The notes beneath the pieces were generated by a model, which saw only the letters and a program-made list of their open reading frames with translations, searched no databases and was not told the origin of the DNA. A DNA stretch of 50,327 nt from Alphaproteobacteria bacterium (GTDB taxonomy: Bacteria > Pseudomonadota > Alphaproteobacteria > JACZXZ01): the NCBI GenBank assembly GCA_035604475.1, contig DATNIJ010000048.1:1-50327 (forward strand), read 5' to 3'. Shown piece by piece: positions 23,393 through 48,154 of this stretch; the first letter of the stretch is position 1, and the number at the start of each line of letters is the position of its first letter. Position numbers and translations under genes: made by a program.

Positions 23393-23409
23393 TCTGCTGG
23401 AGGTGCCGA

Positions 23410-28464: not shown

Positions 28465-29030
28465 GTCGCATCACCTCATGCCAAGCAATGTGCTGAACTC
28501 GACGCACATAACTCAAAAATGGCGCATCCTCAAGTGGTAAACACGGCTTTCGCATAGCGGCGGCACCGACCGGACGAGCAAGAATCGGACGCCCCGGGAG
28601 GGCCGGCAATTGGCGGCGACTTCCAAGCAAATTGCCGCCCGTTGCTCCCGGCGCATCCGGAACAAACGTCCGCGTCGCCGCATGGATGCCGAATATACCT
28701 GGTTGACGCCGTCGCGATATCGCAGACGAGGATTGAGGTCGACACCTCGGGCACAGACCGACGCCGTGAAGCGCGCGTCCGCTCGCTTCCTGGAAGGCGC
28801 ACGGCGAGGGCGGCGACCCGGCTGCCGGTGAAGGGGGAGACATGGGTTATCGGGTCCTGCAGCCCTCCCTGCCACGCCCGCCGAAAGCCGCGCTTGACTT
28901 CCAACCCAAAACCGCGCGGCCCACTCTAAGCTTTTGCAAGCGCGCGAGCTTCAGCTATAGTATTTGCGCATGCCCTGCGACACCGCTGCCCGAGCGGCCC
29001 GGCGTCGCGAAGCACCGAGATGGGGGGGAT

Positions 29031-30389
29031 ATGTCTCGCGCCGCTTTTCCTGCCGCGCTTTTGCGATGGACCATCGCAGGAGCGCTGTTGCTGCTCGCAG
29101 CCGCCGCCGGAACACCGCTCTACGCGCAGACCGCCGCTCCGCAAGCTCCAAGCACCCATCTCGGCGTGGCGACCTGCTCCGGCAGCACCTGCCACGGCTC
29201 GATGGAGCCGTGGAAGGGCTCGCACGTGCAGCAGAACGAGTACATCATCTGGACCAAAAAGGACAAGCACGCCCGGGCCTATTCCGTGCTTTCCAACGAG
29301 CGCTCGAAGCGCATCGTCGCCAACCTCGGTCTCAAGGCGGCGACCGAGGAGCCGGTCTGCCTCGAGTGCCACGCCGACTTCGCACCCCAGGACCAGCGCG
29401 GCACCCGCTTCCAGATCAGCGACGGGGTCGGCTGCGAGGCCTGCCATGGCGCCGCCTCGCGCTGGCTCGGCATCCACGTCTCCGGCATCAGCACCCATCA
29501 GAACAACATCAACCTCGGCATGTATCCGACCGACCAGCCGGTGGCGCGCGCGCAGCTTTGTCTCTCCTGCCACTTCGGCGACGGGCACCGTTTCGTCACC
29601 CACCGCATGATGGGGGCCGGCCATCCGCGCATCAACTTCATGGAGCTCGACACCTTTACGGCGATCGAGCCGGCACATTTCGTGGTCAACGACGCCTATC
29701 GCTCGCGCAAGAGCGCGCCGAGCGGGGTGCAGGTCTGGGCGATCGGCCAGGCGATCGCGCTCGGCAAGGTGCTCGATGCCTTGATGGATCCGAAGCGCAA
29801 TACCGACGGACTCTTCCCCGAGCTGGTGCTGTTCGATTGCTTCGCTTGCCACCATTCGCTCAACGAGCTCAAGTGGCAGCCCCGTGCGGCGACCGGCCTC
29901 GGCCCGGGCGTGCCGCGGATTAACGACGCCAACCTGGTGATGCTGCGCCTCATCGCCGAGCGCATAGCGCCCGGCACTGGCAAGGAGCTCACCGAGCGAG
30001 GGCGCGCCCTCCATGAGGCGGCGACGCGCAGCCGGGAGGCCATGGCCGAGGCCGCGCGCGCGCTCAAGACGGTCGTCAGCGGCATGGTGCCGATGCTGGA
30101 GCAGCACCAGTTCAGCCGCGAGGACTTGAGCGCGCTTCTGGCTACGATCGCCGAAGGGGGCCTGCGCGGCGACGAGTTCGATTATGCCGCGGCGGAGCAG
30201 TCGACCATGGCGCTGAGCGCGATCATCCACACCATGAAGAACATTGGTGCTGTCGACGAGAAGCAGTTTCAGGCGCTGGACACCGCACTCAACCGCGTCT
30301 ACGAGGCGGTCAACAAGGCGGACGGTTACAAGATGCAAGCCTTCCTTGCCGCCTTGGGCGAGTTCAAGCACGCGATCCCCAGCGGCTGA
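29031..30389 (+). CDS. Secreted multihaem c-type cytochrome (cytochrome c554-like N-terminal region plus helical C-terminal domain)
   Basis: The start is taken at MSRAAFPAALLRWTIAGALLLLAAAAGTPLYA (signal peptide), giving 452 aa. There are four CxxCH motifs (CLECH, CEACH, CLSCH, CFACH) and one CX4CH (CSGSTCH, followed by the W..S.H context seen after the first haem of c554-like proteins). Confidence 0.8.
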   Translation: MSRAAFPAALLRWTIAGALLLLAAAAGTPLYAQTAAPQAPSTHLGVATCSGSTCHGSMEPWKGSHVQQNEYIIWTKKDKHARAYSVLSNERSKRIVANLGLKAATEEPVCLECHADFAPQDQRGTRFQISDGVGCEACHGAASRWLGIHVSGISTHQNNINLGMYPTDQPVARAQLCLSCHFGDGHRFVTHRMMGAGHPRINFMELDTFTAIEPAHFVVNDAYRSRKSAPSGVQVWAIGQAIALGKVLDALMDPKRNTDGLFPELVLFDCFACHHSLNELKWQPRAATGLGPGVPRINDANLVMLRLIAERIAPGTGKELTERGRALHEAATRSREAMAEAARALKTVVSGMVPMLEQHQFSREDLSALLATIAEGGLRGDEFDYAAAEQSTMALSAIIHTMKNIGAVDEKQFQALDTALNRVYEAVNKADGYKMQAFLAALGEFKHAIPSG

Positions 30390-32347: not shown

Positions 32348-35300
32348 CTACTGCGGCGGCGCCGCAGCGCGCTGCCGCCGACCGGAAAGCCGCGCCGGCG
32401 AGGCCGACGGCTCTGCCGCCGGCAATGCCCGCAGCAGGTCTTGCATGCGCACCTCGTCCGTGACGTACCAGGGCATGCCTTTGACATCGAGATAAAGCTC
32501 CTGCATCTCGGGAAGCGTGAAGGGACGCGAGCCGAGACGCCCGAAGACCGCGATCTGATTGCCGCTCTCATCGACGCCGCGGTCGCGCTCGAGGCCCTTG
32601 GAGAGCGAGAGCGCCGGCCACTCGGTCTTGCGCCAGGCGATGAGCTCGGGCTTGGGCTCGGGGCTGAAGCCGTAGAGATTGGGCTGGCTGTCGGGCGAGG
32701 TGAGCTGGATCACCTTGAGGCCGTTCTTCCCGTCCGCCACATAGGCGAAGAGCGAGGCGTTGGTGGTGCCGACCACCACGTCATTGGCGTCGTTCATCTT
32801 GCCGTCGGCGTTGAAGATCCGCGCGAGGTGCGGATGCTCCGGGCGCTCGACGTCGATGATGGCGAGCCCGTCGCGGCCGTCCGCGACATAGGCATAGGTA
32901 CGCGCGACATAGAAGCGCCGCGCGTCCGCGAGCGGGACTGCGGCGCCCGCAACCTGCTGGGGCGCCTCGGGATGGGTCACGTCGATCACCTTGAGCCCCT
33001 CGCGGTCGAGGGCGAAGAGATAGCGGAACTGAAGCGCCGTCGCGCGCACGCCGTCGAGCTTCACCACCGCGTCGAGCTTGGGATGCAGCGGGTCGCTCAT
33101 GTCGAGCACAACGATGCCGGCGTCGGCGGCGATGTAGAAATGGTCGCCGCCGATAGTGATGTGGCGGGCCCCCTTGAGCACGCCGCCCTCGTTCCAGGTG
33201 AGCGCCCGATTGAGGAATCTGTCGCGCGGCTCGCGGGAGGAAAGCGGGTTGACGTCGGTGAGGATCAGGCCCTCCTCCGCATCCGTGATATAGGCGTAAT
33301 TGTAGATCGGGTGCATGGGCTGCTCTTGATTGTCCTCGCGCATGAGCTTGCCCTGATTGCGCGCCGGATCGATCGACTGGTTGGTCGGCAGCGCCACGCA
33401 GGTGGCGTTGCGCGAGCCGATGTGCATGTCCTGGCCGAGCGGCGAGAAGGGTGCTGTGATGATGCGCTCGGAGACGTCCTTGTTGGCGACGCTCGCCACG
33501 TCGTAGGCGCGCATGCCGTCATCGCCCTCGGCGACATAGACAAATTCGCCGCGCTCCTGGATGCAGCCGCTGCGCCCGCCGGAATGGCTGTGCGCCTCCT
33601 CGAGCTCGCGGCCGCGCGCGAGATGCGCGTTGTACCAGTCGGGATAGGCGTATTTGTGGAGGTAACTGCCGATCACGGCTTGGGGCTCGTCCCACTCCGT
33701 CACCCGCACCGCCTCAATGCCGCCGTCCTCGCCGACCCAGCTGTTGTAGCCGATGAAGTTGACGAAGTTGGTCCCGAGCAACAGGAGCTGCGCCATGATC
33801 GCGTTGTTGTCGTTGGCCTCTGAGAGGTGGCAGTCGGTGCAGGTCTTGGTCTCGGTGGTGCGCTCGGTGTGCGGAAAGTGGGGTGCGAAGGCCTGGCTGC
33901 TGTAGCCGCTTGCGGCGATCGGCGGCTGCTGGATGTAGATGCGCTCGCGATTGATGTTGGTCGAGCTCAGCACCAGCGCCGAGGACGAGCGCACCGGCGC
34001 TATGATATTGCCCTCGACCGTGCTGTGCTTGCCGAGCTGGAACATGTCGTCGCGCGCAACTTGCGGATTGTAGGAGGCGAAGTTGCGGGTGATGCCGCCT
34101 TCGTAATGGTGCCGCTCGGTGCGCCAGTTGGCCTGGATCGGCAGGTGGCAGCCGCTGCAGCTCGTGGTCCACGAGGTATGGCAGCTGTAGCAGGCCATCT
34201 CGCTGCTCTTGTGCGCCAGGTCGGCCTCCGGCACGCCCGGGCCCCATTTGAAGGTGGTGCCCTTCGCCATCAGCTTGGCGCGCGCGGCGCGGGGGTTGAA
34301 GCGGGGATTGTTGGGATCGACGGTGTCCTTGACGAGGCTCACCTCCCACTCGAGCTTGGGATCGACGGCGGAGTGCTGGATGAGCTTGTCGCCGCGCCAC
34401 TCGAAGCGCCGCTGGCCGTCCTGGTTGCGCAGGAGGGCGAGGTCGTAGCCGCCTGGCTGCGCCGCGGGCCCGCTGGTCATGAGGGTGGGATAGCGCTCGA
34501 TAGTGCCGTGGCAATCGACGCAGCGGATCTCGATCGCCGACATCACCTCGCCGTAGATGTAGCCGTTGCCGTGGGCGTCCTGGCTGAAGTGGCAGTCGAC
34601 GCACTGCATGCCCTTGTCCACGTGGATCGAGCTCAGATGGACCGCCTTCTTGGCCCACGCCGGATCCTCGCGCGGCACGATCTGGCCCTTGGCGTCGAGC
34701 AAATCGCCCTTGCGGTCCTGCTTGAAGACGGCGCGGAAGTTCCAGCCGTGACCGTGATAGTCGGCGAACTGCGTCATCTTGAGCTTGGGGTTGAGCTCGC
34801 TCACCTGGTCGAGGAAGGCGGGGTCGCCCCACTTGCCGCGGATCGCCGCCTCCTCGGGATTGCGGTCGAGGATCGCCCGCGCCTCGGCGTCGCTCGGATA
34901 CTTCTGCTTCGCCGGCCACATGAAGGGTGCGTCCGCCTCGTAGTCCCACATGGTGTAGCCCAGCATGGTGTTGAGGAACATGTTGGGCTGGTGCATATGG
35001 CAGATCATGCATTGGCTGGTCGGGATCGCGTTCGTGAAGGAGTGGTGGATCGGATGCCCCGGCTCGTGCTTGGGGACGGTGGGGTCGGTGCTGGCGCTCT
35101 CGCCGTTGTGGCCGTAGACGGCATAGGGGCCAGAATGGCGAGGATCGCGGTCGTTGGCATAGACGACGTGGCAGGCGCCGCAGCCCGAGGTGCGGTAGTC
35201 GCCCGGATTGTCGTTGGTGCCGAGGAACCAGGTATAGGGATCATTGAGGCGCGTCTTGGCGAGGTTGAGCACCGGCACCGCGATCCTGAGCCCGGTGCCG

Positions 35301-36169
35301 AGCCCGCGGTTCGACTGGCGGATGTCCGGCTTGCCGGGCATCTCGAGCACCTGCAGCTTGCCCTCCGCATCGGGATTGCCGATGTCGGGGAACGCCGAGC
35401 CGATGCTGATGCCGCCGCGCTCGAAGACGCGGAAGATGTCGGCGGGCGGCACCACCTCCCAGGCCGGCAGCGGCAGGAGCTTCGGCAGGATGCCGTGGCT
35501 CTTCATGAGCGCGTCGGGATCCTTCGGGTTCTTGGCGATCGCCGCGGTGCCGTCCCGCGTATAGGCCTCGCCGAGAATGTAGTTCTTGTAGGGCAGGATG
35601 CCGTTGTTGTAGGAGGCCCCGCCCCAGAACATGGCGGCATTCGCCATCAGGCTGCGCTCGGCCGCCTCGATGATCTCGAGATGACAGGCGCCGCAGGCCT
35701 CGCGCGCGACGCGCAGGTCGCTCGGGTTGACGAAGCGGATGAACTCGGGCGCCTCGCGGTTGAGCAGCGTGTAGCTCTCCGCGGGCTTGCGGCTCTTGGG
35801 ATAGCCCCAGCTCTTGGGATAGCGCGGCAGCACGTGGGCGCGATTCATTGCCTCATCGTAGGCGGGCGTCCCGGACGCCCCCTGCCCCGGCCCCATCACT
35901 TGCGCATTGCCGCCGTGGCAGTCGGTGCAGCCGAGCGTCACTATGTCGCTCTCGTGCATGGTCAGGCTGTCGGTCGTGGTGTGGCAGGAGCGGCAGCCGG
36001 CACTCTTCGCCTTGGCCTCCTCCGGGAGCTGCGCCCGCGGCGCCGGCGGAGCCGGCGCGTAATGCACCTCGCGCGGGCTCTCCTCCTCGGGCATGGCCTC
36101 GAGGAAGCCGGCGCCCCCGAGGAGGAGCCAGGCCGAAGCCAGCAGCAGGACGGACGAGAGGCGGCGCAT
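32348..36169 (-). CDS. Secreted decahaem c-type cytochrome fused to a C-terminal LVIVD-repeat (beta-propeller-type) domain
   Basis: 1273 aa with signal peptide MRRLSSVLLLASAWLLLGGAGFLEA. Ten CxxCH motifs: CRSCH, CTDCH, CGACH, CGACH, CMICH, CVDCH, CVDCH, CYSCH, CSGCH, CTDCH. Six LVIVD-like repeats follow: FVYVAEGDDGMRAYDV, YAYITDAEEGLILTDV, FYIAADAGIVVLDM, YLFALDREGLKVIDV, YAYVADGRDGLAIIDV, FAYVADGKNGLKVIQL. Confidence 0.85.
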   Translation of the reverse strand: MRRLSSVLLLASAWLLLGGAGFLEAMPEEESPREVHYAPAPPAPRAQLPEEAKAKSAGCRSCHTTTDSLTMHESDIVTLGCTDCHGGNAQVMGPGQGASGTPAYDEAMNRAHVLPRYPKSWGYPKSRKPAESYTLLNREAPEFIRFVNPSDLRVAREACGACHLEIIEAAERSLMANAAMFWGGASYNNGILPYKNYILGEAYTRDGTAAIAKNPKDPDALMKSHGILPKLLPLPAWEVVPPADIFRVFERGGISIGSAFPDIGNPDAEGKLQVLEMPGKPDIRQSNRGLGTGLRIAVPVLNLAKTRLNDPYTWFLGTNDNPGDYRTSGCGACHVVYANDRDPRHSGPYAVYGHNGESASTDPTVPKHEPGHPIHHSFTNAIPTSQCMICHMHQPNMFLNTMLGYTMWDYEADAPFMWPAKQKYPSDAEARAILDRNPEEAAIRGKWGDPAFLDQVSELNPKLKMTQFADYHGHGWNFRAVFKQDRKGDLLDAKGQIVPREDPAWAKKAVHLSSIHVDKGMQCVDCHFSQDAHGNGYIYGEVMSAIEIRCVDCHGTIERYPTLMTSGPAAQPGGYDLALLRNQDGQRRFEWRGDKLIQHSAVDPKLEWEVSLVKDTVDPNNPRFNPRAARAKLMAKGTTFKWGPGVPEADLAHKSSEMACYSCHTSWTTSCSGCHLPIQANWRTERHHYEGGITRNFASYNPQVARDDMFQLGKHSTVEGNIIAPVRSSSALVLSSTNINRERIYIQQPPIAASGYSSQAFAPHFPHTERTTETKTCTDCHLSEANDNNAIMAQLLLLGTNFVNFIGYNSWVGEDGGIEAVRVTEWDEPQAVIGSYLHKYAYPDWYNAHLARGRELEEAHSHSGGRSGCIQERGEFVYVAEGDDGMRAYDVASVANKDVSERIITAPFSPLGQDMHIGSRNATCVALPTNQSIDPARNQGKLMREDNQEQPMHPIYNYAYITDAEEGLILTDVNPLSSREPRDRFLNRALTWNEGGVLKGARHITIGGDHFYIAADAGIVVLDMSDPLHPKLDAVVKLDGVRATALQFRYLFALDREGLKVIDVTHPEAPQQVAGAAVPLADARRFYVARTYAYVADGRDGLAIIDVERPEHPHLARIFNADGKMNDANDVVVGTTNASLFAYVADGKNGLKVIQLTSPDSQPNLYGFSPEPKPELIAWRKTEWPALSLSKGLERDRGVDESGNQIAVFGRLGSRPFTLPEMQELYLDVKGMPWYVTDEVRMQDLLRALPAAEPSASPARLSGRRQRAAAPPQ

Positions 36170-36179
36170 GGCGCTGATC

Positions 36180-37970
36180 TCAGTAGGTCAAGACGATATC
36201 GGCGAGCACGGAATAGAGGTAGCGCTGCTTGTCCTGGGACACATAGAGGTCCTTGAAGCCCTGCTGCGGAATGAGGATGCCACCGGACAGCCGCAGCACG
36301 ACGTTCTGCGTGAAGAACGGCCGGTAGGTCAATGCCGCCGAGAGATCGAAACCGATGCGGTCCTGGATCTCGCCCTGCTGGCGCAGCACCTCGAGCACGG
36401 AGGTGTTCTGGAAGCGCAGGTAATTGGCGTTGGTCGAGAGCTTGAGCTCGGGGAGGATGTCGGCATCCGAGCCGACGCCGAAAAGCAGCAGGCCCGGGTT
36501 GATGAAGTTCGATTGCCCCTGGTCCTCCGAGGTGCGCAGCGAGGGCAGAATCGCGTTGCGGCCGGAGAGCACGACGCCGCCGCCGCCGATGAAGGGAATG
36601 GCCTGGCGGATCCAGTAGCTGGTATCGGCGCCGGCGAACTGCGGGTTCTCCATGATGGCGTCGAAGCCCGTCTCGGTCCTGCCGTAGGGATTGCGGTCGC
36701 CGCTGGCGTAGAGGCCCGAGAGCCGCACGCGCAGCCAGTCGAAGTCCACCGAGGGCTCGATCGCCGCGAACTCGGCGCGGATGTCGGCGGGCTTGCCGCT
36801 GAAGGTGTTGTGACTGTCGTAGCCGTTCGCGTAGTAGGCCGAGCTCATCAGGTTGAAGCGGCCGATATGGCCGTTCATGTTCCAGCCGGCGTAGGTCACG
36901 TCGTAATTATGCCCGCGCTCGTCGCCGATGGGGGCCGGGCGGACGAGGAAGTCGTTGTCGTCGTAGAAGCGCTCGCCGCGCTCGCGGTTGCGGTTGTAAA
37001 CGACGGTGATCTGCTGGGTCAGGCCGGGCCAGGGCAGGTCCTGGCGGTAGAGGTTGGTGACGAGGACCCAATCCTTGCGCCGCGCCTGGGTCACGTCGTT
37101 GAGCCCGCTGTCGGTGTCCTTCTCCAGGCGCTGGAACATGGCAAGGTTGTACTGCCAGAGATTGTTGTCGCGGTTGCCGAAAAGCCGCGCGCCGAGCTGG
37201 TCGTCCTGGAAGAGGAAGCCGCGGAAATCGGTGGAGAAGGGCTGAATGCCGACGCGCAGCGAATCGAAATCGTAGCGCTCCGAGACGTCGCGCAGGTGGT
37301 AGTCGATGAACGCTTCCTGCAAGCCGACGAAGGTCTTCTGACGCGTGTCGCCCTTGCGCGGGTCGGCATTGACGATGCCGACCTCGTCGACCGAAAGGTA
37401 ATTGACGTTGAAGACCGGCGTCACCCGGAACTCGAACTCGGGCGGCTTGAAGGCGGTGTCGCCCTTGGTGAAGGAGAAGCTCGAAAGCAGATTCTCGTTG
37501 ATGAAGGCTTGGCCGATGCGGCCGTAGGTGTCGATCTCGCGCGAGTTCTTGGTCGACTGCACGCCGACCGGCGTCGGCACCGTGCGCGGCTCGAACACCG
37601 TATCGTTGACGAAGGACGTGCTGAAGAACCAATCGTTGCCGAAGAGCGGCCGGTCGCCCTTGAAGGTGTTCTGGCTGTAAGGATTCCACCAGTGCTCGTT
37701 AACCCCGATCTCCTCGATGAGGCGCCAGCGGTCCGGCACGGGGATGAACTCGCGAGGATAATCGCGCGTGGGCGGCGCCACCGCAGGGGGGCCGGTCTCG
37801 GGCGCCGGCGTCTCCTCGACCGGCGGCGGCTGGCCGGGCAGCCGCCGCCCGTCCTGGGCGATGTCGAGGTCCTCGGCGAGGGAAGGCTCGATTTGATATC
37901 CGGCCGCCCGCGCCGGGTGCGACAGCGAAAGCGCGAGCCCGACTGCCAGTAGCATGGACCACGGGCGCAC
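36180..37970 (-). CDS. Putative outer-membrane beta-barrel protein (porin-like)
   Basis: 596 aa with signal peptide MRPWSMLLAVGLALSLSHPARA. A Pro-rich N-terminal segment is followed by a long region of alternating hydrophobic/aromatic dipeptide pattern. The C-terminus ...ADIVLTY carries an OMP-type terminal aromatic. It is 10 nt from the downstream cytochrome gene and 9 nt from the upstream gene. GTG start at 37970, or ATG at 37955. Confidence 0.65.
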   Translation of the reverse strand: MRPWSMLLAVGLALSLSHPARAAGYQIEPSLAEDLDIAQDGRRLPGQPPPVEETPAPETGPPAVAPPTRDYPREFIPVPDRWRLIEEIGVNEHWWNPYSQNTFKGDRPLFGNDWFFSTSFVNDTVFEPRTVPTPVGVQSTKNSREIDTYGRIGQAFINENLLSSFSFTKGDTAFKPPEFEFRVTPVFNVNYLSVDEVGIVNADPRKGDTRQKTFVGLQEAFIDYHLRDVSERYDFDSLRVGIQPFSTDFRGFLFQDDQLGARLFGNRDNNLWQYNLAMFQRLEKDTDSGLNDVTQARRKDWVLVTNLYRQDLPWPGLTQQITVVYNRNRERGERFYDDNDFLVRPAPIGDERGHNYDVTYAGWNMNGHIGRFNLMSSAYYANGYDSHNTFSGKPADIRAEFAAIEPSVDFDWLRVRLSGLYASGDRNPYGRTETGFDAIMENPQFAGADTSYWIRQAIPFIGGGGVVLSGRNAILPSLRTSEDQGQSNFINPGLLLFGVGSDADILPELKLSTNANYLRFQNTSVLEVLRQQGEIQDRIGFDLSAALTYRPFFTQNVVLRLSGGILIPQQGFKDLYVSQDKQRYLYSVLADIVLTY

Positions 37971-37979
37971 GGGGCGGCC

Positions 37980-39884: not shown

Positions 39885-40003
39885 CTCCCCCCTTTGGCGC
39901 GCATCCCCTATGCGTGCCAGCCCCGATTAAAAGGCATAGGGTGGCGGAGGTCAAGATGCCGGCCGCGCTTTCTTCATTTTCTTTCCGATAGTTGGCCGGC
40001 TCG

Positions 40004-41686
40004 TCAGGGCCGTTTTGGGGCTGCGGCCTCGGCCGGTCGCATGAGCTCGAGATTGGCGCGGTGAAAGATGTGACAAAGCAGGCAAGGCGACGGCACCGCC
40101 GCCGTCGCCGCCGGGCCGCCGTGGCATTCGCGGCATTTGGCGATCTTGGGCATCATCACGATCTCGCTGGTCGTCGAGCGCTCAGCGCCCATGTGGCATT
40201 CCTGGCAGCGCAAGGTGCCATGCTTGCTGTGATCGAACTCCGCCTTGGGCATCCAACGCCGCGTGAGCAGCACGGGTGCGATCTCCCAGTTCTTGCTCGC
40301 ACTCGCCTCCGGCGGGACCACGGTGTGGCAGGTGCCGCACATGCCGCCGCCGAAGACGATCTTGCGCAGCGTGATCTTGGTCTGCTCGTCGGCCCACTCG
40401 CGCGCCTCCACGCGGTCCGCCTCGGCGAGCGGCTCGCCCGGCAGCCCGCCGAGGGTGGCAGGTATCACGCCGCGGCTCAGCGACCGCGCGGCATAGAAGT
40501 CGGCGACGATGCGGATGACCTCGGCCGGCTCGCCGTGCGGCAGCTGGCGCCTGGGCGCGGTCTCGTCGAACTGCAGGCGATGGCATCGCTGGCACTCGGT
40601 CTCCATGCGGGTCGGCCGGATGAATTTGCCGCCCGGCTCGAGCTTGTGGCAGTCGGTGCAGGTGAGCACCACTGTCCCCTTCTCGGGGTCGCGCACGCCC
40701 TTGGGATCGAGGTGCTTTTGGTGATTAAACTTGAGCCCGGAGTGCTCCACGAGCGGCGTGCTCGCGGCGAGCGACAGGCGCTCGCGCAGCTGCTTTGCCG
40801 GGTCGACCACGACCGTGGGACGGAACTCGGGGTGCGTGCTGGTGAAGTCGGAGACATCCTCGAGCGTGGTCTCCTTGTCCTTACGCTTGAGATCGGCGTG
40901 GCAGTCGGTGCAGAAGGCCTGGTCGTGCCGCACGATCGGCTCCTCGCCGCGGTGCTCCTGGTGGCAGACCCCGCAGCGCACGAGCTGCAGCTCCGCCAAG
41001 CGCAGCTGTTGCGGGGGGACGTGGTGATGGACCGTCTTATGGCAGGCGACGCAGGCCGCATCGGCGACCTTGGCAAAGGCCTCCCTGTGGCAGGCCTGGC
41101 AATTGCCGACGAGATTCTTGTGCGGCGCCGAGATCGTCCCGCTCGACACCATGCGGTCGGGCGGCAGCGCGGCGGCGGTAAGCATGCTGCGAACGTTCTT
41201 CGCGTAGAACGCCGCCACCGGCAGGGCCAGCGTGACGGCGATCACGCCAAGAAAGAACACCCAGGACCAGCGGCGCTTGCTCGGCAAGAGGGCCGCAAGC
41301 TGGAGGCCGGTGATCGCCGCTCCCTGGCTCGAGCCCTCCTCAAGCGGGTTGACGAGCTCGACCTCGACGAGGAGGTCGTGATCGCCCTCGGCCTCGTTGA
41401 GGCCGATGCGATAGGGACCGATGCCGATCTCGTCGCCCGGCTGGACGACGGCGCGGGCGACCGGGATGCCGTTGACCGTCATCAGGTTCCCGCCGCTCGC
41501 GGCGACGACGAAGGCGCCGTCGAGCAGCCCCAGCCGCGCGTGACCGAAGGCGACGCGGATGTCGGGAAGATAGACCTCGTTCGCGGTGCCGCGCCCGAAG
41601 CGCAGGATCGCCGTCTCGACGGGCTGGTCGGAATGGGAGATCGCGCCGCCGGCGCGCCGGGTTATGAATCTCACGAGCCAACGCAC
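40004..41686 (-). CDS. FHA domain - transmembrane helix - decahaem c-type cytochrome fusion
   Basis: 560 aa with a GTG start. The N-terminal FHA-like domain reads ILRFGRGTANEVYLPDIRVAFGHARL...NLMTVNGIPV...GDEIGIGPYRI. One TM segment follows (WSWVFFLGVIAVTLALPVAAFYA). Ten CxxCH motifs: CQACH, CVACH, CGVCH, CTDCH, CTDCH, CQRCH, CGTCH, CQECH, CRECH, CLLCH. Confidence 0.85.
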   Translation of the reverse strand: MRWLVRFITRRAGGAISHSDQPVETAILRFGRGTANEVYLPDIRVAFGHARLGLLDGAFVVAASGGNLMTVNGIPVARAVVQPGDEIGIGPYRIGLNEAEGDHDLLVEVELVNPLEEGSSQGAAITGLQLAALLPSKRRWSWVFFLGVIAVTLALPVAAFYAKNVRSMLTAAALPPDRMVSSGTISAPHKNLVGNCQACHREAFAKVADAACVACHKTVHHHVPPQQLRLAELQLVRCGVCHQEHRGEEPIVRHDQAFCTDCHADLKRKDKETTLEDVSDFTSTHPEFRPTVVVDPAKQLRERLSLAASTPLVEHSGLKFNHQKHLDPKGVRDPEKGTVVLTCTDCHKLEPGGKFIRPTRMETECQRCHRLQFDETAPRRQLPHGEPAEVIRIVADFYAARSLSRGVIPATLGGLPGEPLAEADRVEAREWADEQTKITLRKIVFGGGMCGTCHTVVPPEASASKNWEIAPVLLTRRWMPKAEFDHSKHGTLRCQECHMGAERSTTSEIVMMPKIAKCRECHGGPAATAAVPSPCLLCHIFHRANLELMRPAEAAAPKRP

Positions 41687-41707
41687 GGCGGGCGACCTTC
41701 GCGGATC

Positions 41708-42544
41708 TCAGAAATAAAAGAAGACCAAGACGATATGGGCGGTGAGGGCGGCGAGCAGCGCGAAGGCGAGCGGCACATGGACGTAGAGCCAGATCTCCAT
41801 CAGCGCCTTGTAGCGGAGGTCGAGCCGGACCTGCGCAACCAGCGCCTGCTTGCGCTGGAGCTCGCGGCGCAGGCGCATGACCGGCACGTCGAGCTTGGCG
41901 GGCACGGTGGCCGCGAGCTCTTCGATCCGGGCCAGCGCCCGCGTCGTGCCGCAGTTGCGATCGACGCCGCTCAACTGCCGGCGCAGCGAGCCGCCGATGC
42001 GCGTCTCCTGGTGGCTGATCCGCACCGCGGCGGCAAAATCGTCCGGCAGGTTGAGGCACGCCGCGCGCGATTCGCGGTCGATGTCGGCGAGCTTGATGAG
42101 CATGCTGCGCAAGGTCTCGCCGCGGCGGTTGTCGGTCATGAGCCGGGGATAGCGCGCATAGACGTAGATGCCGAAGAGGCCGCTCCCGATCACCATCATC
42201 ATGAGGGCATAGGCCAGCGTGTGGATGTTCCAATGGAAGCGGAAGCCGGTGTGCAGGGTGGCAATGACGGCGAGCGCCAGGCCGAAGTAGACGTGGCCGG
42301 AAAGCCAGGCCTCGAGCCGCCACTCGCCGGGGCCGTAGCGGCGCTTGCGCACGCCGAACCACATCAGCCAGACGACGAGAAGTGCTGCCACCGTGCCGAG
42401 CGTGTAGCCGAGCCAGGTGCTGCCGCTCGGCACGCCGCGCGGCGAGTCGACGGCGTACCAGACGAGTGCCGCCCCGGTCATCGCCGTGGCGACTTTGGGA
42501 TAGAGTAGGTTGCGGTAGACGAGGAAGGATTCGTGGAGGCTCAT
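41708..42544 (-). CDS. Integral membrane protein, about 5 TM helices with conserved-looking intramembrane histidines (possible b-haem carrier)
   Basis: The start is taken at MSLHESFLVY, where the ATG overlaps the upstream stop (ATGA at 42541-42544). Histidines sit in predicted helices (GHVYFGLALAVIATLH, NIHTLAYALMMMVIG, WLYVHVPLAFALLAALTAHIV). A soluble helical insert of about 100 aa lies between TM4 and TM5. Confidence 0.7.
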   Translation of the reverse strand: MSLHESFLVYRNLLYPKVATAMTGAALVWYAVDSPRGVPSGSTWLGYTLGTVAALLVVWLMWFGVRKRRYGPGEWRLEAWLSGHVYFGLALAVIATLHTGFRFHWNIHTLAYALMMMVIGSGLFGIYVYARYPRLMTDNRRGETLRSMLIKLADIDRESRAACLNLPDDFAAAVRISHQETRIGGSLRRQLSGVDRNCGTTRALARIEELAATVPAKLDVPVMRLRRELQRKQALVAQVRLDLRYKALMEIWLYVHVPLAFALLAALTAHIVLVFFYF

Positions 42545-44946: not shown

Positions 44947-45022
44947 CCGTCGCGCGGGCGCGGAAGCGTACCAATCGGCGCGCATTGCGGATTGCCGTGC
45001 GCATGGGCACCCGTACGGTCAC

Positions 45023-45051
45023 AATCTTCAGCTTTTCGGCCTGGGTGTCAA
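45023..45051 (-). promoter_or_regulatory. Candidate promoter upstream of the oxidoreductase gene (duplicated at 48360-48388)
   Basis: The minus strand reads TTGACA, 17 nt, then AAGATT. Both hexamers and the spacing are conserved in the decayed duplicate. The -10 is weak (3/6 to TATAAT). Confidence 0.3.
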
Positions 45052-45128
45052 CGCGATCCCGCGCCTCCTTGCGCCGCGAGGGCGCGCCGCCGGCCTCGTG
45101 ACACGGCGCGCCCGACCGCCGCCAGGGC

Positions 45129-45899
45129 CTATTTGAACAGCTTTTCGCCCGACGCCGTGGCGCCGTCCACCACGCGCTGGTTCGACAATTCTTCGATCAG
45201 CGCCTTGGCTTGCACGGTGCAGCCGACCGTTGCCATCCAGCTCAGCACTTCGGCATCCGTCACGACTCTTGCGGGCATGATGCGCAGGGTCAGCTCGCGC
45301 GTCATTTCCGGCGGGGCGAAGGTGACGACATAGCCGGCGCCGTCCGCGGCCTTGACGCGCTTCGGCCAGGGCATGACGATCTGGTCCGCGGGCCACTCGA
45401 AGCTGCTGTGCTCCTTGGTGCCCTTGTGGGTGATGGTGATCGAGACGGTCTGCTTTGGCGCGGGCCGCCACAGCTCGAGCTCGGTCGCGGGCTTGATGCA
45501 CTTCGTCCCCGAGGCGGCGACGTTGATCGACCAGACCGTGGGCGTTTTGGCGGCGGCGCCCAAGCCCCGCGTCAAGCCGAGGGTGGTCAAGCCGCTCGAG
45601 CCCTCGGTCGTGACGATGGCGGCCATCCGCGTGAGCAGGCTGGGGCCGTCCGCCCGATCTTCCCCGCCCGGGATGCCGTTGTAGGGCCCCCTCACGGTAA
45701 CCACCTGGCCGCTCTCGTCCATCAGCACGACGTAGTTGTCGGCCTTGACAGCGAACTTTTGGCTGCCGTCCACGGTGTCGCCCTTCTGCAGCCCGGTGTC
45801 GGGCGAGCTCTCGAGCACGAGGAGCTTCGCCGCACTCGCCGGCACGGCCGAGAGCAGGAGTGCGGCGAGCACAAGCGCAAATCGTGACCAGCGCATCAT
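45129..45899 (-). CDS. Secreted hypothetical protein translationally coupled to the CHASE2 cyclase
   Basis: The start is taken at MMRWSRFALVLAALLLSAVPASA (signal peptide), giving 256 aa. The start overlaps the cyclase stop (ATGATG/TGA at 45896-45899). No motif was recognised with confidence; the N-terminal half is possibly a FecR-like beta-sandwich. Confidence 0.7.
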   Translation of the reverse strand: MMRWSRFALVLAALLLSAVPASAAKLLVLESSPDTGLQKGDTVDGSQKFAVKADNYVVLMDESGQVVTVRGPYNGIPGGEDRADGPSLLTRMAAIVTTEGSSGLTTLGLTRGLGAAAKTPTVWSINVAASGTKCIKPATELELWRPAPKQTVSITITHKGTKEHSSFEWPADQIVMPWPKRVKAADGAGYVVTFAPPEMTRELTLRIMPARVVTDAEVLSWMATVGCTVQAKALIEELSNQRVVDGATASGEKLFK

Positions 45900-47944
45900 T
45901 TGTCCTCCAACATGATTGTGATGCCAGTCTCCCCCCGCCGCAAGCGTTCCAGATGGAACGCCGCGAGCGGGTCCTCGGGCTGGCGTCGGTGGAGCGCCTC
46001 GAAGGCGCCCAAGGCTTGAGGGGAGCCTTGCCGCAGCAGCTCGAAGGCCGCGCAATAGTCGGCAAGGCCCGGAGACTCGTCCGCGGCAGGCGCGAAGACC
46101 GCGACGCTGTGCGCTTTGCCGCGTAGCACCACGTCGCCGACCGGCCGCAAGGGAATGTCGCCCGCCTCGGCCACCACCGCCTCGCTCGCGGCGATATCGG
46201 TATTGAAGTACTTGTTCGCACCCTCGAGCCGCGCCACGGTATTCACCGCGTCGCCGTGCGCCATGTATTCGAGCCGGGCGGCGCCGCCGAAATTGCCGAC
46301 CGTGGCGAGGCCGCGGTGGACGCCTATTCGAGTGCGCCCGAAATCGAGCCCTTCCGCCGCCGCCTTTCGGCGCTCTTCCTTGGCGAAGCGGTTCATTGCG
46401 AGTGCCGAGCGGAGCGCGTGCGCCGCCTGCTCGGGGTCATCGAGGGGCGCTCCCCAGAAGGCGAGGACCGCATCGCCGATGAAGCCGGCGACGGTGCCCT
46501 TGTGATCATAGATGATGCTCGTCATGCCGCTGAGATAGCGATTGAGCGCCGGCACCAGGGCCTTGGGATCCGCACTCTCGCACAGCGTGGTGAAGCCGGA
46601 GATGTCGGTATAGACGAAGCTCATCATGCGCCGCTCGCCGCCGAGCTTCATGTCCTCGGGGTGGAAGAGCAGGTGATCGACGACCTCCGAGGGCACGTAG
46701 CGGGTCAGGACCGAACGGATGAAGCGCCGCTCCGCGGCGTGGAGCTGGCGCGCGTGGGCAATGCCGATCGTCATGGCGATGAGGAAACCGGCGGCCGGCG
46801 TCACGAGCGGGAAGATCGGCCCCGGCGTCACCACCGGCGCCGTGGCGCCGCCATAGTGAAAGATCGCCCCGGCCGCGGCCAAGAGCAGCATGATCGTGGC
46901 GAACCCGACGGTCACGCGCAGCGACCACGCCATCTCCCGGCGGCCGATGAGGAAGCCGAAGGCGGCCAGGCCGGCAATGAGCAAATCCGCGGCCCACGAG
47001 GGCACCGCCTCGACCTCGCGCCCGTCGAGAAGCTGGGCCAGGCCTTGCGCCTGAAGATAGACCCCCGGCGTGGCAGATTGGCCAGTCAGCGGATCGCTGG
47101 CAAAGGGCGTGCGGTGGAGATCGACATTGAGAAGATTGGCGCCGATGAGCACGACGCGATGGGCAAGCGTGCTGCTTTGCACCCGCCAGATCTGCGGCAT
47201 CTCGGGAAAGAGCAGGTGCGCCGGAAAGCGAATGAAGGGCTGCTGGTCCTTGAAGGGATGGCCGTAATAGGCGAGCGGCAGCGTGAGGCCGGGGGGCGCC
47301 GCGCCCCCGGCGCTCTTGCTGAGGAGGAGATCGAAGGTCTCCCGGACCGTGCCCGCCGGCACGCGCAGGACGAGCTGCCGCACCACCCCGTCGCGATCCT
47401 CGCGCATCACGCTCAAGCCGGGCACGACGAGCGGATTGTCGATGCGCTTGATGAAGTTCTCGAGATACGTCTCCTGCCAGCGCTCGATGGCGCCCGGCGC
47501 ATTGACCGCATCGATCCAGCCCAGCACCACGGGCACGCGCACGTGGTGCAGTGCGGCCAGGAGGGCTGCATCCTTCTCGGGCTCGCTCGGCTCGTCGAAG
47601 AGCACGTCGATACCGATCGCCGCCGGTTCGGCGGAGGCCACGGTGTCGACGAGCTTGGCGAGAAGGCCGCGGTCCACCGGCGAGCGGCGGCCGATCTTGG
47701 CCGCCGTCGCCTCGTTGATCTCGACCACCGCCACCTTGGGATGCGGGGGTGCCGACGGCGCCAAGAGCGCCAGACGTAGATCGCCGAGCCAGGTCTCGAG
47801 CAGGCTGAAGGGTGGCACCCGCGCGGCGAAGAGGAGTGCTGCGAGCAGCGTCGCGAGACTTGCCGAGGAGCGCAGCCAGATCTTCCATGGGCGCGGCGAC
47901 TCTTCCAAAAGCGTAGTGCCACGCCCATCTCGGGACCGCATCAA
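45896..47944 (-). CDS. CHASE2 sensor domain - TM - class III nucleotidyl cyclase
   Basis: 682 aa. N-terminal TM, then a periplasmic CHASE2-like region (VAVVEINEAT...IGIDVLFDEP...VVLG), three TM helices, then the cyclase domain (MSFVYTDISGFTTL, GFIGDAVLAFWGAP, RIGVHRGLATVGNFG, GDAVNTVARLE). Confidence 0.88.
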   Translation of the reverse strand: MMRSRDGRGTTLLEESPRPWKIWLRSSASLATLLAALLFAARVPPFSLLETWLGDLRLALLAPSAPPHPKVAVVEINEATAAKIGRRSPVDRGLLAKLVDTVASAEPAAIGIDVLFDEPSEPEKDAALLAALHHVRVPVVLGWIDAVNAPGAIERWQETYLENFIKRIDNPLVVPGLSVMREDRDGVVRQLVLRVPAGTVRETFDLLLSKSAGGAAPPGLTLPLAYYGHPFKDQQPFIRFPAHLLFPEMPQIWRVQSSTLAHRVVLIGANLLNVDLHRTPFASDPLTGQSATPGVYLQAQGLAQLLDGREVEAVPSWAADLLIAGLAAFGFLIGRREMAWSLRVTVGFATIMLLLAAAGAIFHYGGATAPVVTPGPIFPLVTPAAGFLIAMTIGIAHARQLHAAERRFIRSVLTRYVPSEVVDHLLFHPEDMKLGGERRMMSFVYTDISGFTTLCESADPKALVPALNRYLSGMTSIIYDHKGTVAGFIGDAVLAFWGAPLDDPEQAAHALRSALAMNRFAKEERRKAAAEGLDFGRTRIGVHRGLATVGNFGGAARLEYMAHGDAVNTVARLEGANKYFNTDIAASEAVVAEAGDIPLRPVGDVVLRGKAHSVAVFAPAADESPGLADYCAAFELLRQGSPQALGAFEALHRRQPEDPLAAFHLERLRRGETGITIMLEDK

Positions 47945-48154
47945 GCCTCTCCCAACCGTCCCCTTAACGGGCGAACTATAACCCTAACGAGGCTCCGCCT
48001 CAGACGGACGAGGCGTGTGGTGACTGTGGCTCCGATCGCCGGTTCATGACGAGCTCTCGTAGAACCAGGCTCAGATGGGACCGATGAACGGTCTAAACGC
48101 CTTCAAGAGGCATAACCGCACGACTGGAGCCGAGGCCATGATAGCACAGAGTGT

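Follow-up and report, generated by a model that had tools for sequence, protein, structure and literature searches.

FHA domains are phosphothreonine readers in signalling, while the covalent attachment of haem to c-type cytochromes takes place in the periplasm. What, then, could an FHA domain do on a multihaem cytochrome? The question is raised by one gene in the window, i.e. the whole stretch of 50,327 nucleotides of an alphaproteobacterial contig that we analysed. The original prediction, made from the sequence alone, had described its product as an FHA domain joined through one transmembrane (TM) helix to ten CxxCH motifs, and had left open whether the FHA domain is a signalling input or a phospho-independent scaffold. 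Our analysis confirmed that the gene encodes a cytoplasmic FHA domain, one membrane helix and a ten-haem periplasmic cytochrome, with Pfam, AlphaFold, hydropathy and the motif count in agreement. The features discussed here are collected in Table 1.

Table 1. Features of the window, with coordinates, strand and the evidence for each assignment
Feature	Coordinates	Strand	Evidence
FHA / single-TM / decahaem c-type cytochrome gene	40004..41686	(-)	ORF of 560 aa; ten CxxCH; Pfam FHA and cytochrome c7/c3
FHA domain, aa 1-111, predicted cytoplasmic	41354..41686	(-)	Pfam, PDB profile, AlphaFold, Foldseek
Low-confidence linker, aa 112-140, ending in SKRR before the helix	41267..41353	(-)	AlphaFold
Single transmembrane helix, aa 141-162, signal-anchor, predicted N-in	41201..41266	(-)	Hydropathy
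Decahaem domain, aa 163-560, predicted periplasmic	40007..41200	(-)	CxxCH motifs, Pfam
5-TM protein, 278 aa, putative dihaem b-type cytochrome	41708..42544	(-)	Motifs, PF01292, AlphaFold helices
NAD(P)H-flavoprotein (TrxR/YpdA-like) / two cyclic-nucleotide-binding domains / 4-cluster [4Fe-4S] ferredoxin fusion, ORF of 814 aa	42541..44985	(-)	Pfam, NCBIfam
Exported HbpS-like (DUF336/GlcG-type) repeat protein, 634 aa	37980..39884	(-)	Pfam HbpS-like, three stretches
Exported protein, 596 aa, putative outer-membrane barrel	36180..37970	(-)	Signal peptide, C-terminal ...VLTY, cluster position
Multihaem (10 CxxCH) protein, 1273 aa, C-terminal LVIVD beta-propeller repeats	32348..36169	(-)	Motifs, conservation
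Cytochrome c554-like tetrahaem protein, frequent seventh cluster member	28842..30389	(+)	Pfam; four CxxCH
CHASE2-adenylate/guanylate cyclase, accessory, not core	45896..47944	(-)	Pfam

The fusion could be an artefact of misassembly, a frameshift or a wrong start, or else a decaying remnant, given that the ORF starts with GTG and that the NCBI call on this contig begins 4 codons later. There is practically no chance of this in our judgement. A Shine-Dalgarno-like motif, GAAGG, lies 9 nt 5' of the GTG, and the NCBI version (556 aa) still includes the FHA domain. Homologues share the start position (MRxLVRF...) with the window protein and the first strand of the AlphaFold2 model consists of residues 2-10, hence the true start does not lie downstream of the FHA-like region, a case that would have refuted the original prediction. 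The same architecture and N-terminus recur in more than 100 genomes of three proteobacterial classes. The FHA domain is functional and under purifying selection: its dN/dS, calculated for 12 close pairs that are independent of each other, is 0.02-0.26 and resembles that of the haem domain. Wrong start and misassembly are refuted by these conservation data and were dropped.

The FHA assignment is supported by both sequence and predicted structure. Pfam PF00498 matches aa 29-90 with 26.6 bits, above its gathering cut-off of 20.7, and the hallmarks that had been noticed by eye are found at G31-R32, H49, N67-x4-N72-G73 and G84-DEIGI-G90, so the profile check came out in favour of the prediction. 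Using phmmer against the PDB we found GarA/OdhI at E=1e-5 for the window domain, while the family profile gave 32 matches, nearly all of them FHA-domain proteins, with GarA at E=8.5e-11. The AlphaFold2 model of aa 1-140 is an eleven-stranded beta-sandwich with pLDDT 90-98 over residues 1-110. All 50 Foldseek matches listed for it in the PDB are FHA-domain entries, led by GarA/OdhI (best E=5e-7). We also considered a YscD-type identity and dropped it, as Yop-YscD_cpl (PF16697) scores 21.2 bits, under its cut-off of 33.2.

The canonical phosphothreonine pocket is degenerate across the whole family. In the alignment with GarA, whose phosphothreonine-contacting Ser we take to be S95, that Ser stands opposite Ala46 of the window protein, so the Ser-to-Ala change had been read correctly. 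Among the 83 genomes compared, the Ser position of S-x-x-H is occupied by Ala in 42 and by Thr in 10, and by Ser in none. G31-R32, which includes the phosphate-contacting Arg, pairs with the GR of GarA; G31 is present in 83/83 and R32 in 82/83 genomes, and the structural His of S-x-x-H (H49) is kept in 74 of the 83 family members. N67 of the window protein pairs with the Asn in the beta6-beta7 loop of GarA, a position that holds Asn in 4/83 genomes. No genome combines Arg, Ser/Thr and Asn at the pocket positions. The comparison of binding positions proposed with the original prediction thus gives a mixed outcome, i.e. Gly-Arg and His are retained but Ser is absent and Asn rare. As Arg32 is near-invariant and Thr replaces the Ser in 10 of the genomes, the domain may still bind a phosphate or a carboxylate.

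The rest of the protein fits the predicted topology. There is only one hydrophobic segment (aa ~141-162; peak Kyte-Doolittle 2.35), with SKRR directly before it, and no signal peptide. Each of the 80 family members analysed has a single segment of this kind and lacks a hydrophobic stretch at the N-terminus, with K+R before the helix exceeding K+R after it in 55 and equalling it in 17. An N-in/C-out orientation is predicted from these features and the positive-inside bias, which would put the FHA domain in the cytoplasm and the haem domain in the periplasm, in line with the earlier claim. In the linker, pLDDT is below 50 over aa 118-140, and L130 and R138 are nearly invariant; P156 in the helix is invariant. 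The ten CxxCH motifs (aa 196, 212, 238, 259, 343, 365, 450, 494, 518 and 535) are all invariant, and no variant haem motifs were found in the window protein. Ten more invariant His, namely H189, 222, 245, 285, 322, 325, 384, 486, 489 and 542, are consistent with bis-His haems. The haem domain matches Pfam Cytochrome_C7 (50.2 bits) and Cytochrom_c3_2 (38.4 bits). A quinol dehydrogenase of the NapC/NirT/CymA type was dropped as a candidate, with no NapC/NirT tetrahaem match in Pfam or NCBIfam.

The search for the same fusion in other genomes, suggested by the original prediction, showed it to be widespread. We collected about 90 full-length homologues of the cytochrome, and at least 124 species genomes, from Alpha-, Beta- and Gammaproteobacteria, contain a relative; the locus search across genomes was seeded from a 5-sequence alignment. 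There are 285 representatives at E<=1e-30, and among the 81 full-length top matches 74 have 10 CxxCH motifs and 3 have 9. Most of the hosts live as ordinary heterotrophic aerobes or methanotrophs (Sphingomonas, Dokdonella, Rhodospirillales, Methylococcales), and relatives are also found in Gallionellaceae iron oxidisers and a biocathode Parasphingopyxis MAG. Cultured carriers include Sphingomonas zeicaulis DSM 100587, Sphingomonas colocasiae JCM 31229, Sphingobium aquiterrae DSM 106441, Parasphingopyxis lamellibrachiae DSM 26725, Algimonas arctica KCTC 32513 and Zavarzinia sp. CC-PAN008. Our literature searches for a Parasphingopyxis biocathode cytochrome and for combinations of cNMP, 4Fe-4S and multihaem retrieved nothing.

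The cytochrome gene travels with a set of conserved partners. The 5-TM gene with two WX3HX13H motifs is directly upstream of it in 80/80 loci. The flavin/Fe-S fusion two genes upstream, previously named as a possible partner of the FHA domain, turned out to be near-obligate, a flavin/cNMP/Fe-S reductase gene being near the cytochrome in 52 of the 53 loci with full flanks. Over the same 53 loci the HbpS-like protein is found in 45, the porin-like protein in 48 and all five partners together in 44. The c554-like protein also travels with the cluster, with homologues in about 40 loci. No protein of the cluster is better conserved than the LVIVD multihaem protein, which shows 60-71% identity between classes and has no sequence relative in the PDB. 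The porin-like protein has no match in Pfam, NCBIfam or PDB, nor does the 308-aa protein at 45129-46055 in PDB or Pfam. The cyclase has weak homologues near the cluster in about 10/84 loci, and the cNMP-patatin and OmpA-like genes of the window do not travel with the cluster across loci. A promoter and terminator scan of 32000-48200 gave nothing above shuffled expectation; the operon structure is based on gene spacing only. The original prediction had overlooked the intervening gene with its dihaem-b signature and the conserved six- or seven-gene cluster.

The 5-TM protein is a putative haem b binder and likely the transmembrane step between the reductase and the cytochrome. Its motifs are W80x3H84x13H98 in TM3, S121GxxG125 in TM4 and W252x3H256x13H270 in TM5, plus an invariant H108, and its five His, including the two Hx13H pairs, are invariant in 81 sequences. 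PF01292 matches 45/47 members of the family, while PF01794 matches 13/47, weakly; on the window protein PF01292 is barely above threshold (31.3 vs 30.1). Some homologues are named 'Ferric reductase like transmembrane component' in UniRef. The AlphaFold model has a conserved long helical insert at aa ~131-245, which we infer from its K/R content to be cytoplasmic. No significant structural match was found by Foldseek against the PDB, the helical matches being below significance, and the profile matched only spurious coiled-coil or ATP-synthase-b sequences there. The dihaem-b assignment therefore rests on the motifs and Pfam. The ATG of this gene overlaps the stop codon of the reductase gene upstream (ATGA). 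The reductase itself has no export signal and is cytoplasmic, and its PDB relatives differ by domain, i.e. YpdA/TrxR and TrxR-type FNR for the flavin part, the PKA-R/PKG tandem for the cyclic-nucleotide-binding domains, and HycB/PsrB/ArrB for the Fe-S part.

Parts of this module have been described before. The original prediction had stated that no characterised FHA-multihaem fusion was known, and this holds; the fusion itself has, however, been catalogued. He et al. 2017 tabulated the module for Gallionella spp. in their Table S6 (MHC 544-556 aa, IMP 308-310 aa, redox protein 796-805 aa), Hoover et al. 2023 listed the cluster in their Table 1 as 'Forkhead-associated protein, 10 CXXCH', and the Ferrigenium straubiae preprint (bioRxiv 10.64898/2026.01.22.701106) pointed out the FHA fusion in a nonahaem cytochrome, 'NHC'. 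Like the window protein, NHC has a cytosolic FHA domain, one TM and a periplasmic multihaem domain, next to a 5-TM and a [4Fe-4S] protein. The Table S6 and NHC trio matches the window in sizes, order and domains, a likeness drawn from the descriptions. NHC has nine canonical haem motifs and the window protein ten; ten is the rule in the family, and some representatives have 9 CxxCH. In Gallionellaceae the locus adjoins no porin or LVIVD cytochrome, in contrast to the complete cluster of six or seven genes in the window, and no redox motif was reported for the 5-TM protein in the preprint, whereas that of the window has the dihaem-b signature. He et al. 2017 defined the IMP of PCC3/PCC4 by five TM, SGxxG on TM4 and WX3HX13H on TM3 and TM5, and proposed it to be a dihaem b protein; the window 5-TM protein has all of these motifs. 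PCC4 shares further traits with the window: it includes cytochromes of 10 and of 4 haems as well as a porin, and in its subgroup II the IMP is preceded upstream by an Fe-S gene. By its description PCC4 has 4-, 5- and 10-haem cytochromes and no LVIVD protein, whereas the window cytochromes have 4, 10 and 10 haem motifs.

The N-terminal domain of the cytochrome co-varies with the type of the reductase and not with the 5-TM protein. Where the cytochrome has an FHA domain, the reductase is the fused Pyr_redox-cNMP-Fer4 protein; a cytoplasmic Cys-rich N-domain is accompanied by FNR-like and cNMP-Fer4 proteins (3/3 loci), and a short N-terminus by no reductase nearby (3/3 loci). The two FHA-less classes comprise 3 loci each on short contigs, and a reductase gene may be located in another part of these genomes. 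The 5-TM insert is found also where the cytochrome has no FHA domain. Two non-homologous NAD(P)H-flavin modules fill the same slot in different variants, which speaks for NAD(P)H as an integral part of the system.

We speculate that the FHA domain is a phospho-independent docking domain on a cNMP-gated electron-export module running from NAD(P)H through FeS and haem b to haem c. This is the reading we favour, tentatively and at a little below an even chance. The reductase would take electrons from NAD(P)H to FAD and through four [4Fe-4S] clusters, and the two cyclic-nucleotide-binding domains between its flavin and Fe-S parts are probably gating; the likely source of the cNMP signal is the CHASE2 cyclase. 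The two Hx13H pairs of the 5-TM protein would carry two b haems stacked across the membrane, and the cytochrome, anchored by one helix, would reach into the periplasm with ten bis-His c haems. In most genomes these may feed the HbpS-like protein, the porin-like protein and the conserved LVIVD multihaem protein. The FHA domain, on a flexible linker of about 25 residues, would tether or position the cytoplasmic reductase at the membrane complex through the retained Gly-Arg loop, not a full phosphothreonine pocket, and may also couple the cNMP-dependent state of the reductase to the complex. The net electron flow would most plausibly be outward, with NAD(P)H as donor and an acceptor in the periplasm or outside the cell, resembling a split, Fe-S-wired NOX/ferric reductase; the basis for this direction is thermodynamic reasoning only. 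Between the two explanations left by the original prediction, the phospho-independent scaffold is favoured, since the pocket Ser is found in no genome and the Asn in few, and no kinase is a conserved neighbour; the partners of the FHA-less relatives suggest the same.

The FHA domain could instead be a genuine phosphothreonine reader, in which case a Hanks-type Ser/Thr kinase would phosphorylate the linker of the cytochrome itself, the insert of the 5-TM protein or the reductase, and the conduit would be switched on or off as the FHA domain binds. Its nearest fold matches are the phosphothreonine-binding GarA, OdhI, Rv1747 and EmbR, nearly all genomes keep the Arg and most the His, the window protein keeps the Asn, and a Ser/Thr kinase (Pkinase) gene is located 11.5 kb from the cytochrome gene, at 26041-28464. 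This kinase is not conserved, however, with 1 weak match near the cluster in 84 loci, the annotated neighbourhoods contain neither a PP2C phosphatase nor a kinase, and the full pocket triad exists in no genome. We consider such a reader quite improbable. A somewhat better candidate, still unlikely in our opinion, is an assembly or oligomerisation module like that of T3SS YscD/PrgH, which would bind the 5-TM insert or other FHA copies and not the soluble reductase, and would build the b/c cytochrome complex. The layout of an N-in FHA domain, one TM and a periplasmic part is that of YscD-type proteins, the weak Yop-YscD_cpl match points in this direction, and the T3SS FHA structure 4d9v is at rank 41 of the Foldseek list; the 5-TM gene is also the tightest neighbour, with its conserved helical insert probably in the cytoplasm. 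But the Yop-YscD_cpl score stays under the cut-off, the insert needs no FHA as it is present without one on the cytochrome, and the N-domain type tracks the reductase.

The direction of the flow may also be questioned. Periplasmic or extracellular electrons, e.g. from Fe(II) or a cathode, could enter through the c haems and reduce a quinone at the 5-TM cytochrome b, with the flavin/Fe-S protein as a separate NAD(P)H:quinone branch and the FHA domain as a regulatory appendage. He et al. 2017, who proposed a quinone-active dihaem b for this membrane-protein class, and the preprint (bioRxiv 10.64898/2026.01.22.701106), which proposed an Fe(II)-to-quinone route, both favoured inward flow to quinone in iron oxidisers. 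Quinone-reactive cytochromes b do belong to PF01292, and the Gallionellaceae and biocathode relatives would suit such a role. Most hosts have other lifestyles, however, the gene for the NAD(P)H-flavin/Fe-S protein is almost always present and, by the ATGA overlap, coupled in translation to that of the 5-TM protein, two unrelated NAD(P)H-flavin modules have taken the same slot, and inward electrons would, by our reasoning, move against the membrane potential. We regard inward flow, or flow through quinone, as an unlikely explanation.

The favoured docking role can be compared with known systems. GarA/OdhI, the best sequence and structure match of the window FHA domain, are actinobacterial FHA regulators of 2-oxoglutarate dehydrogenase, and bind this metabolic redox enzyme via their phosphothreonine-binding face without phosphorylation. 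The entries 6i2q and 8p5x, among the Foldseek matches listed, are published complexes of GarA/OdhI with their target enzymes, in which the binding is phospho-independent, and offer a precedent for the docking role. GarA/OdhI are small and soluble; their R/S/N pocket is intact and their N-terminal tail can be phosphorylated, whereas the window domain has lost the Ser, does not conserve the Asn in its family and is tethered to a membrane cytochrome. In T3SS inner-ring proteins, FHA-like domains act independently of phosphorylation to attach a cytoplasmic machine to an assembly in the membrane. YscD/PrgH/EscD share with the window protein the N-in topology and the order of FHA-like cytoplasmic domain, one TM and periplasmic domains, but the Pfam match is below threshold, the periplasmic part is unrelated and the context is not secretion.

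On the electron-transfer side, the proposed logic is like that of the NOX and FRE ferric reductases (NADPH-FAD plus a dihaem-b domain), i.e. from NAD(P)H to flavin, to two b haems (Hx13H, TM3 and TM5) and to an outside acceptor. The weak PF01794 matches and the UniRef names link the 5-TM family to ferric reductases, although this homology is marginal and PF01292 scores better. The window module differs in its separate polypeptides, the added four-cluster Fe-S wire and two cNMP domains, and a tethered decahaem as acceptor. CymA/NapC/NrfH and the Geobacter ImcH and CbcL are, like the window protein, inner-membrane-anchored c-type multihaem proteins that feed periplasmic or outer-membrane cytochromes, and in CbcL a multihaem c domain is likewise combined with a membrane domain of the b type. 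To our knowledge none of them has a cytoplasmic FHA domain. The window cytochrome differs from this group in having no Pfam NapC/NirT match, and its electrons are proposed to come from a dedicated cytoplasmic NAD(P)H enzyme, not from the quinone pool.

An FHA domain on a multihaem wire, with its pocket eroded yet under selection, points to a protein-docking use of this fold in an electron-transport complex. The core module is widespread, catalogued and uncharacterised. It consists of a decahaem cytochrome, a dihaem-b-like protein and an NAD(P)H-flavin/Fe-S protein that carries two cNMP domains, and is often joined by the porin-like and the highly conserved LVIVD multihaem proteins. If NAD(P)H electrons are exported under cAMP/cGMP control, this would be a new periplasmic or extracellular reduction route in bacteria not known for extracellular electron transfer, and would bear on the passage of electrons across the inner membrane of the iron-oxidising Gallionellaceae. 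A bolder version, which we hold as possible and well short of even probability, is that the FHA domain is the docking adaptor of an unrecognised respiratory bypass, in which a cNMP-gated NOX-like complex bypasses the quinone pool and takes electrons of cytoplasmic NAD(P)H by way of Fe-S clusters, two b haems and the tethered decahaem wire directly to the periplasm or the surface of the cell, in many ordinary aerobic Proteobacteria (sphingomonads, Dokdonella, Rhodospirillales, methanotrophs and Gallionellaceae). The FHA domain would then gain a phospho-independent role in bioenergetics that is linked to a second messenger.

The FHA cytochrome is built as the original prediction described it, with FHA hallmarks at the N-terminus followed by one helix and ten CxxCH motifs. 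The FHA domain (Pfam) covers aa 29-90 and scores 26.6 bits, above its gathering cut-off of 20.7, the sole hydrophobic segment spans aa ~141-162 with SKRR just before it, and ten CxxCH motifs were counted (aa 196, 212, 238, 259, 343, 365, 450, 494, 518 and 535), the C-terminal part consisting of cytochrome c7/c3 domains (Pfam). All 80 relatives have exactly one hydrophobic segment (median start residue 142) and none of them has a hydrophobic N-terminus. Positive charges average 3.1 before the helix vs 2.0 after it, being more numerous before it in 55 of the 80 relatives and equal in 17. Covalent haem attachment is a periplasmic event and therefore the protein is predicted to be N-in/C-out, with its two halves on opposite sides of the inner membrane as had been proposed. 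The start does not lie downstream of the FHA-like region, since the homologues share the same first residue (MRxLVRF / MSFxIRQ...) and residues 2-10 form the first strand in the AlphaFold2 model. GAAGG is found 9 nt upstream of the start, and the stop of the preceding gene 21 nt before it. NCBI annotates a 'cytochrome c3 family protein' starting 4 codons downstream (556 aa), with no effect on this reading.

Sequence and structure comparisons both lead from the N-terminal domain to FHA proteins. A phmmer search of aa 1-139 against the PDB sequences gave GarA/OdhI at E=1e-5, with G31-R32, H49 and N67 aligned to the Gly-Arg, His and Asn of GarA. A family profile (26 members, aa 1-168) reached GarA at E=8.5e-11 and matched 32 PDB sequences, nearly all FHA-domain proteins. 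The AlphaFold2 model of aa 1-140, built from the 80-sequence family alignment, has 11 strands and a pLDDT of 90-98 for residues 1-110, and low confidence for the linker (aa 118-140). The 50 Foldseek matches listed against the PDB are FHA-domain entries (GarA, OdhI, Rv1747, FhaA, EmbR, Ki67, kinesin-3 and others), headed by 7rj3 (E=5e-7) and with the type III secretion FHA structure 4d9v at rank 41. The YscD-type model of Pfam falls below its cut-off on this protein (21.2 vs a threshold of 33.2).

The phosphothreonine pocket has been lost across the family. Ala46 aligns with the GarA Ser that contacts the phosphothreonine, so the Ser-to-Ala change noticed in the sequence is real. We scored the pocket positions in 83 species genomes, and the protein set shows a like pattern. 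Gly31 is Gly in all 83 and Arg32 is Arg in 82, and His49 is His in 74; the Ser position holds Ser in none, Ala in 42 and Thr in 10, and the Asn position holds Asn in four. No genome among the 83 combines Arg, Ser/Thr and Asn. Despite the pocket loss the FHA domain is under purifying selection: across 12 close, independent pairs its dN/dS is 0.02-0.26, similar to the 0.02-0.16 of the haem domain. The original prediction left two roles for the domain, i.e. a cytoplasmic signalling input docking onto the electron wire, or a phospho-independent scaffold. No kinase or phosphatase was found in the annotated neighbourhoods, and the Ser/Thr kinase of the window has one weak match near the cluster in 84 loci. 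The FHA domain as a candidate scaffold is thus better supported than the signalling input.

The original prediction proposed to seek the same fusion elsewhere, and relatives occur in 124 genomes in a scan of one genome per species, several cultured strains included. They cover Alphaproteobacteria (Rhodospirillales, Sphingomonadales including a biocathode Parasphingopyxis MAG, Hyphomonadaceae/Algimonas), Gammaproteobacteria (Dokdonella/Lysobacterales, Steroidobacteraceae, Methylococcales) and Betaproteobacteria (Rhodoferax, Usitatibacter). The closest match has 42% identity, so the window's species is absent from the scanned representatives. A homologue search gave ~90 relatives of full length, at 28-99% identity and 97-100% coverage; their names are 'cytochrome c3 family protein' or 'FHA domain-containing protein', and every one has ten CxxCH. 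Searching exhaustively with a profile of aa 1-168, we obtained 285 representatives at E<=1e-30; of the 81 full-length proteins (500-720 aa) among the top matches, 74 have ten CxxCH and three have nine. In the 80-sequence alignment the ten CxxCH and ten further His are invariant, the number needed for ten bis-His haems.

The FHA cytochrome is encoded in a remarkably constant gene context. We searched the window proteins against 84 related loci by tblastn, and counted partners in the 53 loci flanked by 9 kb or more to either side. The 5-TM protein (~278 aa) is immediately upstream of the FHA cytochrome in 80/80 loci with room for the gene. The ~800-aa flavin/cNMP/Fe-S protein is within 10 kb in 52/53 loci, the porin-like and LVIVD multihaem proteins are each present in 48/53, the HbpS-like protein in 45/53, and all five partners jointly in 44/53; a c554-like tetrahaem protein is found in about 40 loci. 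Some genomes have the three-gene core alone (loci L001, L006, L052, L076 and L029). The six window genes all run in one direction, spaced by -4 (ATGA overlap), 21, ~120, 9 and 10 nt, and a consensus scan detected neither promoters nor terminators inside the cluster beyond the level of chance.

Features of the window discussed in the text
Feature	Coordinates	Strand	Description
tRNA-Phe	21439-21514	+	
Low-G+C stretch	21500-25100		G+C 0.57-0.61 vs ~0.67
PIN-domain gene	23652-24077		
Hanks-type Ser/Thr kinase	26041-28464	-	807 aa; long Pro/Ala-rich repeat region; C-terminal DUF4384
c554-like tetrahaem protein	28842-30389		
cNMP-binding patatin-like phospholipase	30417-32195	-	directly downstream of cluster
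LVIVD multihaem protein	32348-36169	-	1273 aa; 10 CxxCH; LVIVD repeats at C-terminus
Porin-like protein	36180-37970		596 aa
HbpS-like protein	37980-39884	-	634 aa; exported
FHA cytochrome	40004..41686	-	560 aa; GTG start; FHA / single TM / decahaem
5-TM protein	41708-42544	-	between reductase and FHA cytochrome genes
Flavin/cNMP/Fe-S reductase	42541-44985	-	814 aa
308-aa protein	45129-46055	-	exported; between cyclase and reductase
CHASE2 adenylate/guanylate cyclase	45896-47944	-	directly upstream of cluster
Second patatin gene	48151-49665		

The 5-TM protein carries the signature of a dihaem cytochrome b. Five His are invariant in 81 sequences, i.e. H84 and H98 (Hx13H), H108, and H256 and H270 (Hx13H), and W80, W252 and S121-G-x-x-G125 are likewise conserved. 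This is exactly the motif set of the PCC3/PCC4 'IMP' of He et al. 2017 (PMC5566968), which has five TM helices, SGxxG and WX3HX13H twice (TM3 and TM5), and for which two b haems were proposed. Of 47 members, 45 match PF01292 (prokaryotic cytochrome b561) and 13 weakly match PF01794 (ferric reductase TM component); some homologues are named as ferric reductase in UniRef. Neither Foldseek nor the PDB sequences gave a significant match. The AlphaFold model has five TM helices as well as a long insert, also helical, at aa ~131-245, which we infer from its K/R content to be cytoplasmic. With the topology taken from charge, H84/H256 would bind the haem on the cytoplasmic side and H98/H270 that on the periplasmic side. 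The gene starts at the ATG at 42544, which overlaps the reductase stop; the longest ORF, with its start at 42658, is an overcall.

The reductase has no export signal and consists of three regions. The first is a TrxR/YpdA-like FAD/NAD(P)H module, with YpdA/Bdr, thioredoxin reductase and TrxR-type ferredoxin-NADP reductase as PDB relatives. The second comprises two PKA-R/PKG-like cyclic-nucleotide-binding (CNB) domains, both with canonical phosphate-binding cassettes (FGEIGL...RRSATIRA and GEMALL...PRSATVTA), and the third is a four-cluster ferredoxin part similar to HycB/PsrB/ArrB. Weak homologues of the CHASE2 cyclase occur in about 10 loci.

The cytoplasmic N-domain changes in step with the reductase, both its type and its presence, as indicated by two classes of distant decahaem homologues without FHA (three loci per class). 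In the Cys-rich class (loci L086, L088 and the P0095 contig; relatives P0095, P0097, P0098 and P0101) a ~95-aa cytoplasmic domain with about 10 Cys and no family match takes the place of the FHA, and the reductase comes as two proteins in 3/3 loci, one FNR-like (FAD_binding_6/NAD_binding_1/Fer2) and one of the cNMP-Fer4 type. The other class has only ~25-30 aa before the TM helix, and no Fe-S or flavin partner was found near these cytochromes in 3/3 loci. The same slot is thus filled by two non-homologous NAD(P)H-flavin modules. Small as the numbers are, they are the strongest evidence at present for an N-domain that would work together with the reductase and for NAD(P)H as an integral partner.

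The LVIVD protein is the most conserved member of the cluster, with 60-71% identity from Alpha- to Gammaproteobacteria vs 30-42% for the FHA cytochrome, which suggests that it is a terminal component with catalytic function and not a passive wire. No PDB sequence relative of it was found. The HbpS-like protein has three HbpS-like (DUF336/GlcG-type) stretches, and an RRRR before its N-terminal hydrophobic region may be a Tat-type signal.

Our analysis suggests a path in which electrons would pass from NAD(P)H through FAD and four [4Fe-4S] clusters, then across the membrane through two b haems to the ten c haems, and would end at the HbpS-like, porin-like and LVIVD multihaem proteins as periplasmic or outer components. 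The CNB tandem could gate this flow. The FHA domain on its flexible tether may keep the reductase in place, set its position or sense the state it is in, through the retained GR loop. A precedent for such docking is provided by GarA and OdhI, which bind target dehydrogenases, reportedly in a phospho-independent manner, and whose complexes are among the Foldseek matches listed. Outward electron flow is favoured by reasoning from redox potential and membrane potential; inward flow to quinone was preferred for iron oxidisers by He et al. 2017 (PMC5566968) and a 2026 preprint (bioRxiv 10.64898/2026.01.22.701106).

Several other features were observed in the window. A cyclic-nucleotide theme is apparent, with the cyclase on one side of the cluster, the two CNB domains in the reductase and the cNMP-binding phospholipase on the other side. 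The Hanks-type kinase is 11.5 kb from the FHA gene and has no synteny to the cluster in other genomes. The 308-aa protein has no Pfam/NCBIfam match and no homologue in the 84 related loci. The low-G+C stretch after the tRNA-Phe, which encodes ORFs without family besides the PIN-domain gene, may be a small integrated island.

The family of the FHA cytochrome has been catalogued but is uncharacterised. He et al. 2017 (PMC5566968, Table S6) listed the trio in Gallionella capsiferriformans ES-2, Gallionella sp. AAA018-N21 and the culture-KS Gallionellaceae, where the MHC has 544-556 aa and 9 haem sites, the IMP 308-310 aa and two Hx13H, and the redox protein 796-805 aa; FHA goes unmentioned there. 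Hoover et al. 2023 (PMC9900912) listed 27 Gallionellaceae genomes encoding a 'Forkhead-associated protein' with 10 CXXCH. The 2026 preprint described a cytosolic FHA in the 'NHC' of Ferrigenium straubiae, called the combination of FHA and multihaem previously unreported and left its function open. It also reported the neighbouring 5-TM protein to be without redox motif, whereas the homologue here carries the Hx13H pairs, SGxxG and WX3H. Full-text literature searches found no biochemical or genetic characterisation of the family, so the statement that no characterised example is known stands, while complete novelty does not. Our analysis adds the loss of the phosphothreonine pocket throughout the family in a domain under purifying selection, a strict core of three genes and the six-/seven-gene cluster in three proteobacterial classes, the dihaem-b signature in the middle gene of this family, and the cytoplasmic N-domain that varies together with the reductase type.
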